This document shows positions 55,900 through 63,811 of a DNA stretch of 64,000 bases, piece by piece (position 1 is the first letter of the stretch; each line of letters starts with the position of its first letter). The notes below the pieces were generated by a model. That model was not told the DNA's origin. It did no database searches and saw nothing but the letters and a program-made list of their open reading frames with translations. Both the position numbers and the translations under genes were made by a program. The DNA is from Perna viridis (Eukaryota), in NCBI GenBank assembly GCA_037379345.1, contig CM074516.1, positions 39,035,626 through 39,099,625 of the forward strand, written 5' to 3'.

Positions 55900-56410
55900 G
55901 AAACCTTTCATCTGTGGCAACACCCCTTCAGCACCTGCGTATGGAGTTTCCTTGTCACAACCCACGCGTTATGCCAGACCTTGCCGTAACTACGCAGACG
56001 TTTTGTACCGCGCAAGAGTACTTACCAATAGGTTCTGGAACAGGGTTATGTTGCTACAAGATTGAAGTCATCACTTGAAGTTTTATGGTCGTCATCATGA
56101 ACTAGTCGAATGTTACAGTGTATCCATCTGCACCATGAAAACCAATTTTTCAATGTGTAATAGTTTTCCTTTCATTCGTCTACCCTGGACGACTTTTTAT
56201 GAACAACTCGGCGGGTGTTTCCTGAAAAGCAGAGAACTCTCACCCAACTGGTGCACCTGGTCCATGCTCCCAGTATTTGTGGAGTCCGAGTTGCTCATTT
56301 ACTCTGTATTATTTTGGTTCTTTTATGTTCTTTGTTGTGTATTTCTGTTTTCCATGTTTAGTCTTTGTCCCTGGATTACACTCTGGCTAGAATCTGGGTT
56401 CCCTTGATTA
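55900..56410 (+). mobile_element. Penelope-like retroelement relic (RT C-terminus plus tail)
   Basis: Degenerate PSAPAYGVSLSQPTRYAR...QGYVATRLKSSL.KFYGRHHELV, followed by the GGCGGGTGTTTC...GGTGCACCTGGTCCATGCTCCC tail. Second copy at 11331-11700. Family assignment is from memory of the motif. Confidence 0.7.
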
Positions 56411-56570
56411 ATCCTTCACAACTTTTATAGACTCGACGGTCAGACATCAATAGTTATTTTGTATGCTCCTGTTAGATTTTGTCAGTAAACTATTCAATAA
56501 CAGAGGCTGATATGCAGAGAAATCTAATTCATTACACATTAAGAAGATATGTAAAAATTTATTTCTAACA

Positions 56571-56650
56571 TCAAAATATTCCTACACAATATACAAAAAG
56601 TAAGGCGACTGTGACTTCAAGCACTGGCTTCAATGGCATCCCTCCATTCT
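56571..56650 (-). CDS. Otoancorin/stereocilin/mesothelin-like protein, terminal exon with GPI-anchor signal
   Basis: GTATGTTACAG| acceptor, phase 1; (E)NGGMPLKPVLEVTVALLFVYCVGIF* has small-residue omega site, spacer and terminal hydrophobic tail. AATAAA at 56563-56558. Confidence 0.8.
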
Positions 56651-56850
56651 CTGTAACATACAACACATATTTTTATTTTTAATCAATATCATCACTGCTT
56701 GAAAATTGTTCACATCTTAAATCATATTGCGAATCAGATAATTTGAAATAAAATAAAAATTCATTTTATACATTTCTTACTATTGTAAATTTGTTTTCTG
56801 AAATTCACTTTTAGACGGTATGACCCACATTTACGTGCAAACAAACTTAC

Positions 56851-56873
56851 GTGGTCTTTTTTCAAAAACAATT
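56851..56873 (-). CDS. Candidate alternative 23-nt microexon of the otoancorin-like gene
   Basis: Flanked by a strong acceptor (GTCTTTGTTATTTTACAG|) and a consensus donor (CAC|GTAAGT). Open in the incoming phase: (E)LFLKKDH. Confidence 0.5.
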
Positions 56874-57206
56874 CTGTAAAATAACAAAGACAATACAACT
56901 CCATTTTAGAAAGATGAATTATGATATATTTTTGCAATTAACCATTGTACTCTTAATTCTAATTATTTAACTAGAACTAATGGGAACAGGCTCAAGATAT
57001 GGATCACCTAGGTACACCTGGACCATGAAAAAGAAACCAGCTTTAGTTAGATGACAAACCTATTCAAGCATTTGTTAACAAATATCTTTATTCATCTTTA
57101 TCTACGAAGTCAATCTATGAAAAATATCCTTATTATCATTATTTTATTTATACTTTAAAATAGAAGCTAAGAAGTTAACGACCCTGTGATATACCAGTAT
57201 AATTAC

Positions 57207-57348
57207 CTGGTCTTTCGCTTTCCCAGGTAATATCACCAGAGGCTTCTAACTTAGTAAATTGATTGTAATTCAGGTGAGATCTCTGTGCTGTAGTTGTTGA
57301 CTGTGCCTGTGCTGCACTGAAGTTCTCAAGTTGATCAGGAGTAAAATA
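57207..57348 (-). CDS. Otoancorin/stereocilin/mesothelin-like protein, exon G
   Basis: CTTTCTCCAG| acceptor, phase 0; YFTPDQLENFSAAQAQSTTTAQRSHLNYNQFTKLEASGDITWESERP; G|GTAATT donor, phase 1. Confidence 0.85.
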
Positions 57349-57514
57349 CTGGAGAAAGCAAGGACATTTGTGACTCACGTGATTCCTATATTATAATTTA
57401 ATAACAAATTGTTTCTTAAGTGCATGTAAAACTGTGGATTAGATTTTTATTTTGCACCAGCAGACGTTATTTTACTAGACACCATCTTTTAAACATTAAT
57501 TTGATAGTCTCTCT

Positions 57515-59461
57515 TAACACTTACACTGAGTATATGAACAGGTAACACTAATACAGAGTGATCAAAACTTTCACTTAGTAGTGGAACAGGTGAGTAACAT
57601 TAATACAGGGTGATCAGACATTAACAGAACATACTGATACTTAGTACTGAGGCAGATATGTCATACTAACACAGAGTAATCAGACATCAACAGAACATAC
57701 TTAAATTAAGTACTGGGATAGTTAAGTAACACTAATACAGAGTAATCAGACATTAACAGACTGAACACACTTACACTTAGTACAGGGACAGGTAAATAAC
57801 ACTAATACAGCGTCTTCGGACATTAACGGAACACACTTAAATTAAGTACTGGGATAGGTAAGTAACACTAACACAGAGTAATCAGACATTTACAAAACAC
57901 ACTTACACTTAGTAATGGAACAGGTAAGTAACATTAACACAGAGTAATCGGACATTAACATAACACACTGATACTTAGTACTGAGGCAGGTATGTCATAC
58001 TAACACAGAGTAATAAGACATTAACAGAAGACACTGACACTTAGTACCGGAATGCGCAAGTAACACTAACACCGTGTATTCCGACACTAACAGAACACAC
58101 ATAAATTAAGTACTGGGATAGGTACGTAACACTAACACAGAGTAATCAGACATTTACAAAACACACTTACACTTAGTAATGGAACAGGTAAGTAATACTA
58201 ACACAGAGTAATCGGACACTGATACTTAGTACCGGGGCAGGTATGTACCACTAATACAGAGTAATCAGACATTAACAGAAGACACTGACACTTAGTACCG
58301 GAATGGGTAAGTAACACTAACACAGTGTACTCCGACATTAACAGAACACTCATATTTAGTACTGAGGCAGGTATGTCATACTAACACAGAGTAATCAGAC
58401 ATTAACAGAACACACTTACACTTAGTACTGGGACAGGTAAGTAACAATAATACAGCGTACTCGGACATTAACAGAACACACTTAAATTAAATACTGGGAT
58501 AGGTAAGTAACACTAACACAGAGTAATCAGACATTTACAGAACACACTTGCACTTAGTAGTGTAACAGGAAAGTAATACTAACACAGAGTAATCGGACAT
58601 TAACAGAACACACTGATACTTAGTACCGGGGCAGGTATGTAACACTAATACAGAGTAATCAGACATTAACAGAAGACACTGACACTTAGTACCGGAATGG
58701 GTAAGTAACACTAACACAGTGTAATCCGACATTAACAGAAATCTCATATTTAGTACTGGGACAGGTAAGTAACACGAACACAGAGTAATCAGACATTAAC
58801 AAAACACACCTGCACTTATTTCAGGGGCTGGTTTGTAACACGAACACAGTCTAATAAAACATTAATAGAACACATTAACACTTATATGTTGTACTAAGGC
58901 AGGTATGTCACACTAACACAGAGAAATCAGACATTAGCAGAACACACCTACACTTAGTACCGGGGCAGGTATGTAACACTAATACAGAGTAATCAGAAAA
59001 TTAATAGAACACACTTACACTTGGTACGGGCACAGGTATGTATCACTAATGCAGAGTAATCAGGCAAAAACAGAACACACTCATACTTAGGTAGTAGGTA
59101 AGTGACACTAACATAGAATAATCAGGTATTAACTGTACACGTTTACATTAAATACTGGAAAAAGGTAAGTGACACTAATAAAGAGTAATCAGACACCGAC
59201 AGAACACAGTTATACTTAATACTTAATCGGCAATTAAAACTGCCACAAAGTAATCCGACATCAACAGTGCAGACTTATACTGAATACTGGAACAGGTAAG
59301 TGGCAGTAATACAGAATAATCAGACACTGACAGAACACATTTACACTTGATACTGAAACGGTATTTTACAAGAACACAGAGAAACAGACTTTGCACTGAA
59401 TACTGAAACAGTTTAGTAACATTAACATAATATACTTACACTGAGTACTAAAACAGGTAAG
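57515..59461. repeat. Intronic satellite, ~29 copies of a ~66-bp unit
   Basis: Unit ACACTTACACTTAGTACTGGGACAGGTAAGTAACACTAATACAGAGTAATCAGACATTAACAGAAC. It fills most of the intron between exons F and G and overlaps the end of exon F. Confidence 0.95.
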
Positions 59462-59537
59462 AAACTGATCTGGTTGGGAGCAATACTGTCTATTTGGTCT
59501 GATGTCAGGACACTTATCTCATCTTGTGACAATCCAC
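59440..59537 (-). CDS. Otoancorin/stereocilin/mesothelin-like protein, exon F
   Basis: CTTCATTTAG| acceptor, phase 1; GGLSQDEISVLTSDQIDSIAPNQISFLPVLVLS; AGT|GTAAGT donor, phase 0. Confidence 0.85.
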
Positions 59538-59883: not shown

Positions 59884-60032
59884 CAACGACAATGCCGACT
59901 GACGATACTGTGGCCCCATCCCAGGACCCAACATTACTTCCATATACATCACTATTCTTGGCAAGTGTAGCAAAGGCTTTAAGCTGATTCTCATCACAAT
60001 TCGTTAATAATCCAACTGCATCTGATGCTTCC
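59884..60032 (-). CDS. Otoancorin/stereocilin/mesothelin-like protein, exon E
   Basis: ATATAG| acceptor, phase 2; EASDAVGLLTNCDENQLKAFATLAKNSDVYGSNVGSWDGATVSSVGIVV; G|GTTAGT donor, phase 1. Confidence 0.85.
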
Positions 60033-60305: not shown

Positions 60306-60454
60306 AGGTAGGCACTAGGGGAAATTGTGTTAATTTCTGAAGCACTCATTCCACATACAAATTTCCCAAGTGACGTTAAATCACTTCCTGTCAAACTACT
60401 GGGTTGTCCACCTGCTTTCACTTTATTCATAAAACCTGTGAAAGCTGCCTGCTC
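60306..60454 (-). CDS. Otoancorin/stereocilin/mesothelin-like protein, exon D
   Basis: ACAACAG| acceptor; EQAAFTGFMNKVKAGGQPSSLTGSDLTSLGKFVCGMSASEINTISPSAY; CT|GTAAGT donor (phase 2). Carries the LxxLGxxxCG motif. Confidence 0.85.
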
Positions 60455-61012: not shown

Positions 61013-61165
61013 CTGCGGCTTTGTCCATCCTTCTTTTTCACCGAGTGTACTAATGCTATCCCTGTCAACATTTAGAACTTCAATAACCGATTCATTAAAA
61101 CCTTGAATAATTGTTCCAGCAGAAGAAATTGTCTCAGACGTCCAGTTACTGACCGAGCCATAAAT
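61013..61165 (-). CDS. Otoancorin/stereocilin/mesothelin-like protein, exon C
   Basis: TTGCAG| acceptor; IYGSVSNWTSETISSAGTIIQGFNESVIEVLNVDRDSISTLGEKEGWTKPQ; CAG|GTAAAT donor; 153 nt, phase 0-0. Confidence 0.85.
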
Positions 61166-61335
61166 CTGCAATATTAACGAAGTTTTAAAGATTTGAATTG
61201 CATAAAAATGTTGTTTACTGACTAAATCATACATTAATTTCTTAGATATGTATTTTTGGTAAACTTAAATTGGGTTTAATATGTAACTTGTAAGATGCTT
61301 TTTGTAGTTACAACTAGTAATATATATATATATGG

Positions 61336-62042
61336 ATGTCAGTTATGCACGCCAATGGAAGAATGTCAATCATGCACGCCAAGGGAAGAATGTCAGTCAT
61401 GCACGCCAAGGGAAGAATGTCAGTCATGCACGCCAATGGAAGAATGTCATTCATGTATGCCAAGGGAAGTATATCAGTTATGGATGCCAATGGAAGAATG
61501 TCAGTCATGCACGCCAATGGAAGAATGTCAGTCATGCACGCCAAGGGAAGAATGTCAGTCATGCATGCCAAGGGAAGTATATCAGGTATGCATGTAAAGG
61601 GAAGAATGTAAGTCACGCATGCCAAGGGAAGTATGTCAGTCGTGCATGTCAAGGGAAGAATGTCAGTCATGCATGCCAAGGGAAGAATGTCAGTCATGCA
61701 CGCCAATGGAAGAATGTCATTCATGTATGCCAATGGAAGAATGTCAGTCATGCACGCCAATGGAAGAATGTCAGTCATGCACGCCAAGGGAAGAATGTCA
61801 GTCATGCATGCCAAGGGAAGTATATCAGTCGTGCATGCCAAGGGAAGAATGTCAGTCATGCATGCCAAGGGAAGTATGTCAGTCATGCATGCAAAGGGAA
61901 GTATGTCAGTCGTGCACGCCAAGGGAAGAATGTCAGTCATGCACGCCAAGGGAAGAATTTCAGTCATGCATGCCAAGGGAAGAATGTCAGTCATGCACGC
62001 CAAGGGAAGAATGTCAGTCATGCATGCCAAGGGAAGTATATC
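61336..62042. repeat. Intronic minisatellite, ~26 copies of a 27-bp unit
   Basis: Unit TGTCAGTCATGCAYGCCAAKGGAAGAA, inside the intron between exons B and C. Confidence 0.95.
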
Positions 62043-62234
62043 ACTTTCAGGTATGGTCTTTAGCATATTTGGCAACAGTTGAACACAAAACATACTACTA
62101 TACTTTATTGGGTTAGTATTTTTGTAATCAGTTAAAAATTTTACTTAAATCAAGTGAAAGTGTAGGCAAAATTAAACAGTTTATTTCTAACATATGACTG
62201 GACATTGGAACTTATTAGGAATGCTGATACAAAC

Positions 62235-62410
62235 CGTTTCCATTTTCTCTGAGAGTGCCACTTTTTGTTCTGAAGACCATTCAGTAACTTGTCCAAAGGT
62301 GGTAAGACAATCCGAGAATTCATTATCCACCAAGGAAGTTAAAACAGCCACGCTTAGTACGGGTAGCCCGACTGAACCAAGGTCTTGTATATCAGAACAT
62401 GTAAGGGAAC
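62235..62410 (-). CDS. Otoancorin/stereocilin/mesothelin-like protein, exon B
   Basis: TTTCCTCTGTATTAG| acceptor; SLTCSDIQDLGSVGLPVLSVAVLTSLVDNEFSDCLTTFGQVTEWSSEQKVALSEKMET; |GTTTGT donor, phase 0. The helical G-x-x-x-x-W-S-x-x-Q repeat is typical of the family. Confidence 0.8.
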
Positions 62411-63603: not shown

Positions 63604-63811
63604 TGTTAGAAGTCGCTCTCTTTCTTCTTGTGTTTATTCCAGCCAGTTTTATTTCGATTATTCTTTTGAAAATTTCCACCGTTCCTTCTTTCTGTTTTAA
63701 CCTTTCCTCTGTTGTGAAGTCGTTTTTAAAACCACTTTGTCGCCTATTTTTCTGAGCAACTTGTCTTTCTTTAAAAGCTTCGATCAAAGAGTCCGCAAGT
63801 TGAAATGATTC
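63604..63811 (-). CDS. Otoancorin/stereocilin/mesothelin-like GPI-anchored protein, internal exon A with furin site; gene continues beyond the window
   Basis: TTTCACTAG| acceptor (phase 0), ESFQLADSLIEAFKERQ...INTRRKRATSN, A|GTGAGT donor (phase 1) matching the next exon. Confidence 0.72.

Follow-up and report, generated by a model that had tools for sequence, protein, structure and literature searches.

A gene of Perna viridis with a predicted GPI signal in its last exon has, in the intron just before that exon, a 23-nt segment flanked by signals that resemble true splice sites. The original prediction held that regulated inclusion of this segment as a microexon switches the product from an anchored to a secreted protein. 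The question raised by this locus is whether the segment is an exon in use. The gene was followed on the minus strand of a window of 64,000 nucleotides, which is the whole stretch of DNA analyzed (assembly GCA_037379345.1, contig CM074516.1; C6:39035626-39099625 of the genome), and 120 kb of upstream sequence was added for the gene model. This model contains 22 candidate exons placed by eye across approximately 20 kb, 20 of which have an open frame, and is incomplete in its 5' part. The features of its 3' part, in window coordinates and in order of transcription, are as follows.

63604..63811, minus strand: exon A, coding; open frame, family HMM E 2e-12; holds a furin-type RRKR at 63628-63617
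62235..62410, minus strand: exon B, coding; open frame, family HMM E 3e-19
61013..61165, minus strand: exon C, coding; open frame, family HMM E 5e-15
60306..60454, minus strand: exon D, coding; open frame, family HMM E 2e-12
59884..60032, minus strand: exon E, coding; open frame, homologue search, family HMM E 6e-19
59440..59537, minus strand: exon F, coding; open frame, family HMM; the F-G junction is a loose end of RNA contigs from runs X1, X19, and X3
57207..57348, minus strand: exon G, penultimate, 142 nt, phase-1 donor; covered exactly by contigs of runs X18, X1, X19, and X3
56651..57206, minus strand: last intron, 556 nt, GT..AG; a 556-nt skip in contigs of X1 (depth 253.8) and X3 (depth 14.1)
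56851..56873, minus strand: 23-nt exon look-alike (candidate microexon); sequence and splice-site scores, with no RNA joint at either end
56543..56650, minus strand: last exon with predicted GPI signal, stop at 56573-56571, and short 3' UTR; sequence and contigs of X1 and X3
56558..56563, minus strand: poly(A) signal AATAAA; sequence, with cleavage at 56543, 15 nt after the signal

Upstream of the window, the first coding region found contains a basic-then-hydrophobic stretch (L003, about 2888-2790). A Cys/Pro/Gln-rich tandem repeat with a unit of 13-14 residues (L003, about 2770-2560, minus strand) comes right after this signal-peptide-like stretch, and several relatives have other low-complexity repeats in its place. 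Within the gene, two intronic tandem-repeat arrays occupy window positions 57500-59400 and 61320-62060, the second of which has a 30-nt unit and long open frames. A dispersed repeat (56305-56420) follows shortly after the poly(A) site. RNA reads that derive from its other copies match it in their thousands, and similar copies are found in the introns of paralogues. Elsewhere in the window, a 180-aa open frame at 25155-24616 (minus strand) has what we take to be the motif of a Cip/Kip cyclin-dependent kinase inhibitor, and broken open frames at 10589-9223 (minus strand) presumably resemble a LINE-type reverse transcriptase.

For exon G, the segment, and the last exon, the coordinates, splice signals, and three translations are all as originally claimed. 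When exon G is joined straight to 56650, the translation ends in a hydrophobic tail with its stop at 56573-56571. In the last exon, a small-residue omega region (NGG) is followed by a short spacer and then by a terminal hydrophobic stretch of 17 residues, which together form a predicted GPI signal (the omega site was judged by eye). The skipped form would accordingly be of the GPI type in layout, having an omega site, a spacer, a hydrophobic end, and no cytoplasmic tail, and the GPI moiety is predicted to be attached near the NGG, where the last exon begins. The segment itself is preceded by a T-rich tract and CAG and followed by the donor CAC/GTAAGT. With the segment included, the frame changes and the protein ends in a hydrophilic stretch, as originally predicted, the stop being at 56632-56630. 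Because this stop lies within the last exon, the tail-less product would escape nonsense-mediated decay (NMD) under the exon-junction rule, by which stops in the last exon are tolerated. Reading through exon G into the intron also results in a hydrophilic end, with a stop 9 codons further on. The peak 13-residue hydropathy over the last 30 amino acids is 2.58 for the skipped form, -0.58 for inclusion, and -0.38 for intron read-through. Finally, a GAG acceptor 2 nt downstream (56648) would allow the segment to be included with the frame open and the GPI tail kept, lengthening the linker by seven residues.

Transcripts at the last intron were examined in RNA-type data from 8 of 24 runs. None of the listed runs is recorded as RNA; X1 and X3 were treated as such because a GT..AG splice is seen in both, and X1 additionally has a poly(A) end. 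Long contigs cover exon G in four runs, namely X1, X3, X18, and X19, and RNA contigs of about 4.0 kb carry it in their 3' part. The two contigs that bridge the last intron come from two studies (X1, depth 253.8; X3, depth 14.1), and both join 57207 directly to 56650 with no extra letters between. Moreover, the X1 contig has a 24-nt poly(T) loose end before 56543, which marks the poly(A) site. In the mRNA as assembled, exon G is joined straight to the last exon, with polyadenylation at 56543, and the part of the original prediction that concerns this form, including its frame, is borne out by RNA. Among the junctions proposed for checking, 57207>56650 is present in X1 and X3, whereas 57207>56873, 56851>56650, and 56851>56648 are in no contig; across the eight runs (mostly assembled contigs), no joint was found at 56873, 56851, or 56648. 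Contigs drop rare variants and only two bridge the junction, such that low-level or tissue-restricted inclusion is below their reach. The raw-read runs X21 and X22 (19% and 24% read, respectively) reach a depth of at most 1 on exon G, leave the last exon without reads, and say nothing about inclusion, and X2 and X20 provided intron fragments only. A homopolymer slip in the assembly, by which a 24-nt exon would appear as 23 nt, was ruled out by contigs of X1 and X18 that match across the segment without gaps.

A search with exon E identified 16 homologous proteins, some of them spliced. These relatives, from abalone, scallop, oyster, and mussel, are named stereocilin-like or otoancorin-like, and 13 full-length relatives have E values of 1e-52 or better. 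A profile built from 14 relatives matches exons A-G in order (E 5e-9 to 3e-19), and the joined stretch matches at E 4e-126. In Pfam, Stereocilin (PF21058) was detected in 7 of the 14 relatives and Mesothelin (PF06060) in one. Single exons of the gene gave no match to either model (0 of 14), probably because they are too short. Searches for homologues with exon G or exon B alone found nothing, no close orthologue was found, and identity to the relatives is only 33-49% (33-41% over the C-terminal 380 aa). In the PDB, exon E gave chance matches only, and the family profile found a single entry below E 0.001, the designed repeat protein 9zem (E 5.5e-12), with no mesothelin. By its sequence, the gene is a new member of the stereocilin/otoancorin-like family, in a molluscan branch, which agrees with the family assignment of the original prediction. 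The C-terminal repeats (the exon F-G region of the profile) match Pfam ALTTAQ_rpt as well as 9zem, which may offer a structural model for that region. In the literature on GPI-anchored and secreted isoforms, microexons, or otoancorin and stereocilin in molluscs, no report of this gene or exon was found among the matches listed.

The C-terminus was compared across 78 proteins: 61 align there, and the alignments of 47 extend into exon G. All of them are distant homologues, and main isoforms are favored by annotation. A hydrophobic tail ends all 47 proteins (25 distinct tails), and a tail-less end was found in none of them. Among these proteins, all annotated isoforms of the Saccostrea, Argopecten, and two Crassostrea genes keep the tail. 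Within the P. viridis genome, three paralogous loci (C2:68.56 Mb, C4:52.65 Mb, and C2:11.02 Mb; L015-L020) have the same 3' exon layout. In the two paralogues for which the last exon was located, a phase-1 junction leads into a hydrophobic last exon, and no comparable segment was found in the last intron, the best splice-site pairs there scoring 9.8 and 9.1 vs. 18.1 for the candidate. The length of the linker varies among paralogues.

Another feature of the family is a furin-type site. The RRKR motif at 63628-63617 (minus strand) is located 319 aa before the C-terminus, and 40 of the 41 long relatives have R-x-K/R-R at 295-335 aa from the end. The same cleavage-type basic site and hydrophobic tail are present in the molluscan relatives of Mytilus (XP_076073209.1), Argopecten (XP_069122944.1), Haliotis (XP_067672716.1, 'otoancorin-like'), and Saccostrea (XP_062591010.1). 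In human mesothelin, furin cleavage is described as yielding MPF, which is soluble, together with a 327-residue C-terminal part that bears the GPI anchor (PMC2628672) and is close in length to the 319 aa in this gene. The furin plus GPI layout is reported as conserved in dog mesothelin (PMC11417096), and the mesothelin family has been proposed to consist of superhelical lectins that tie the extracellular matrix to the cell (PMC2628672). Homology to mesothelin itself is remote, as seen in the single PF06060 match among 14 relatives and in the PDB search, where the family profile misses mesothelin. These similarities suggest that the molluscan family keeps a mesothelin-like precursor layout, with a predicted furin-type cleavage and a GPI-type tail, and this is a firmer result than any splice switch. 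Were RRKR cut, the long N-terminal portion would be set free in soluble form, and roughly 300 residues would stay on the membrane anchor, as happens in mesothelin. With such a cut, a soluble product would already arise without a splice switch.

The strength of the splice sites of the segment speaks for its being an exon. Scoring matrices were trained on the gene's own sites (19 acceptors and 18 donors), a small set from which four uncertain exons were left out. The segment acceptor scores 8.5, which is above 17 of the 19 leave-one-out scores of true sites (median 5.4), and its donor scores 9.6, which is in the upper third of true sites (median 8.0). Markov nulls based on the introns of the gene put the expected number of equally good pairs at 0.004-0.015 in an intron of 556 nt and at 0.12-0.40 in all intron interiors of the gene combined (14.7 kb), with the threshold set post hoc at the candidate's own score. 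By these nulls, the segment is above chance for its own intron and only modestly so for the whole gene. In 368 kb (184 kb, both strands), nine pairs of at most 51 nt have a summed score of at least 18.1, including the candidate and one modelled exon of 48 nt. Just upstream of the window, a 28-nt look-alike (L002, 1572-1545, minus strand) reaches 20.4 and exceeds the 18.1 of the candidate, yet each of its three reading frames is closed by a stop, and its neighbors, when joined to each other, fit the family profile without gaps. Our reading of this look-alike is a pseudo-exon or a poison exon. Since it outscores the candidate and has stops throughout, strong sites alone do not make a coding exon in this gene. 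Exact matches to the 23-mer in metagenome contigs numbered zero, which is uninformative.

The donor of the segment resembles that of exon G. The segment end plus donor (56859-56845) and the exon G end plus donor (57215-57201), both on the minus strand, match at 13 of 15 nt. In the last 10 exonic bases, eight agree, whereas real exon ends, compared in 231 pairs, never agree at more than seven. The likeness is equalled by 4 of 1,000 shuffles, although it was spotted after the fact and the match is partly splice consensus. The motif common to the two ends occurs in the window only at these two places. Read in the phase of exon G, the segment end gives EKRP, compared with ERP in exon G, and continues in frame into the GPI exon; the 5' end alone is out of phase. 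A tandem duplication of the whole intron, with the segment made up of the start of the last exon and the end of exon G, was rejected, as the flanking halves are unlike (744 of 1,000 shuffles as high); the acceptor-side likeness in the same test is unremarkable (433 of 1,000 shuffles as high). An origin from a dispersed repeat is not supported either, with 56500-57400 matching only itself in the genome in a search that skips common words. The donor likeness is perhaps the relic of a short duplication of the exon G donor, and such a copy would explain a good donor without selection. Alternatively, the donor-side likeness with unlike flanks could reflect an old exon kept by selection.

The segment was also compared with known classes of microexons. 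Neural microexons that depend on eMIC/Srrm are shorter than 28 nt, and the 23-nt segment falls under this length. TGC is absent at -25 to -3 of its acceptor, and its AG exclusion zone of 23 nt is ordinary for this gene (14-112 in true acceptors, median 29). The eMIC-dependent microexons are described as having UGC near the 3' splice site, a long AG exclusion zone, and a weak acceptor (PMC8797185). Unlike these, the segment has neither UGC nor a long AG exclusion zone, has a strong acceptor, and shifts the frame.

Taken together, these findings make it likely that the main mRNA, with exon G spliced straight to the last exon, encodes a stereocilin/otoancorin-like protein predicted to be GPI-anchored and that the 23-nt segment is a cryptic exon, normally skipped, rather than a regulated switch. 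This reading is favored because both bridging contigs skip the segment, no joint of inclusion was found, all 47 relatives keep the tail, two paralogues lack the segment, and the eMIC features are missing. The segment is likely unused or rare; its good donor may be a copy of the exon G end. If it is included at all, this would be splicing noise at a low level, with a tail-less product beyond the reach of NMD. Against this reading, the sites of the segment equal those of real exons in strength, and by chance this intron should hold about 0.01 such pairs.

The strength of these sites could also mean that the segment serves as a genuine minor exon without regulation, present in a few percent of transcripts in every setting where the gene is expressed, with a trace of tail-less product of little consequence. 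Assembled contigs cannot reveal variants at that level. In addition, run X18 has a contig (depth 20.3) whose end lies 1 nt beyond exon G, precisely at the position at which skipping and inclusion would part (both start with A), and this end is compatible with a fork between the two. It is a weak hint, given that in X19, a run of the same study, the contig also breaks off near the junction, 7 nt beyond exon G, at a point with no expected fork. Neither X18 nor X19 covers the last exon, and a hole in contigs proves nothing. However, inclusion has never been directly observed. In X1, the intron contig has no break or gap at the two ends of the segment, where branching by splicing intermediates might show, although this is a weak argument. 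A minor exon is unlikely.

Slightly more doubtful is the regulated switch of the original prediction, in which inclusion of the segment at a particular tissue or stage removes the GPI signal and yields a fully secreted protein. It draws on the same strong sites, rare by chance in this intron, on the inclusion stop in the last exon, on the contig end at the fork position in X18, and on a segment that is intact and gap-free in X1 and X18. The absence of inclusion joints in eight runs, with skipping in both bridging contigs, leaves regulated inclusion unsupported so far, and the tail in every relative, the two paralogues without the segment, and the missing UGC feature also argue against it. Precedents exist for the logic of such a switch. 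In NCAM, the exon of the secreted isoform carries its own stop. Alternative splicing of NCAM is reported to give secreted and GPI-linked isoforms (PMC2115936), just as the choice of the proposed exon would decide between anchored and secreted forms; the secreted form of NCAM was shown experimentally, in contrast to the 23-nt inclusion, which was never observed. Mesothelin variant 3 (SMRP) is an insert form (PMC6162689) with a hydrophilic tail (PMC4247962), which corresponds to the proposed logic, although its insert is 82 bp rather than 23 nt (PMC6162689). According to a review, soluble mesothelin is the product of variant 1 cleavage (PMC6162689), which weakens the splice analogy. In its fullest form, the proposal would be that a donor duplication made a lineage-specific, frame-shifting microexon, turned on in certain tissues or at a larval stage, which converts a GPI-anchored matrix-tethering protein to a secreted, NMD-proof form, an independent invertebrate switch of the soluble-mesothelin type; we consider this scenario equally doubtful.

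A tail-less form might also arise by retention of the last intron instead of a microexon. An unspliced X1 contig (57144-56624, minus strand) is joined to the last exon; its depth of 8.9 is about 3.5% that of the main contig, and the read-through end is hydrophilic. Such a depth is ordinary for unspliced pre-mRNA, contig depth is a poor measure of level, and the contig stops short of exon G by a 62-nt gap, all of which makes this route very improbable. Least credible is inclusion of the segment with the +2 GAG acceptor, for although the frame restoration noted in the original prediction is correct and paralogue linkers do vary in length, this acceptor scores -1.3 vs. 11.1 for the real acceptor of the last exon and no joint at 56648 was seen.

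If the regulated switch were true, an invertebrate relative of stereocilin and mesothelin would use splicing to control whether it is tethered to the surface, and an exon of recent origin, arising from a copied donor, would have acquired a function. Because anchored/secreted splice choices are known from NCAM and mesothelin variant 3, such a switch would be a new case and no new principle. The molluscan stereocilin/otoancorin-like family has been little studied, and its predicted combination of a furin-type site and a GPI-type tail is the firmer outcome for the biology of these proteins.
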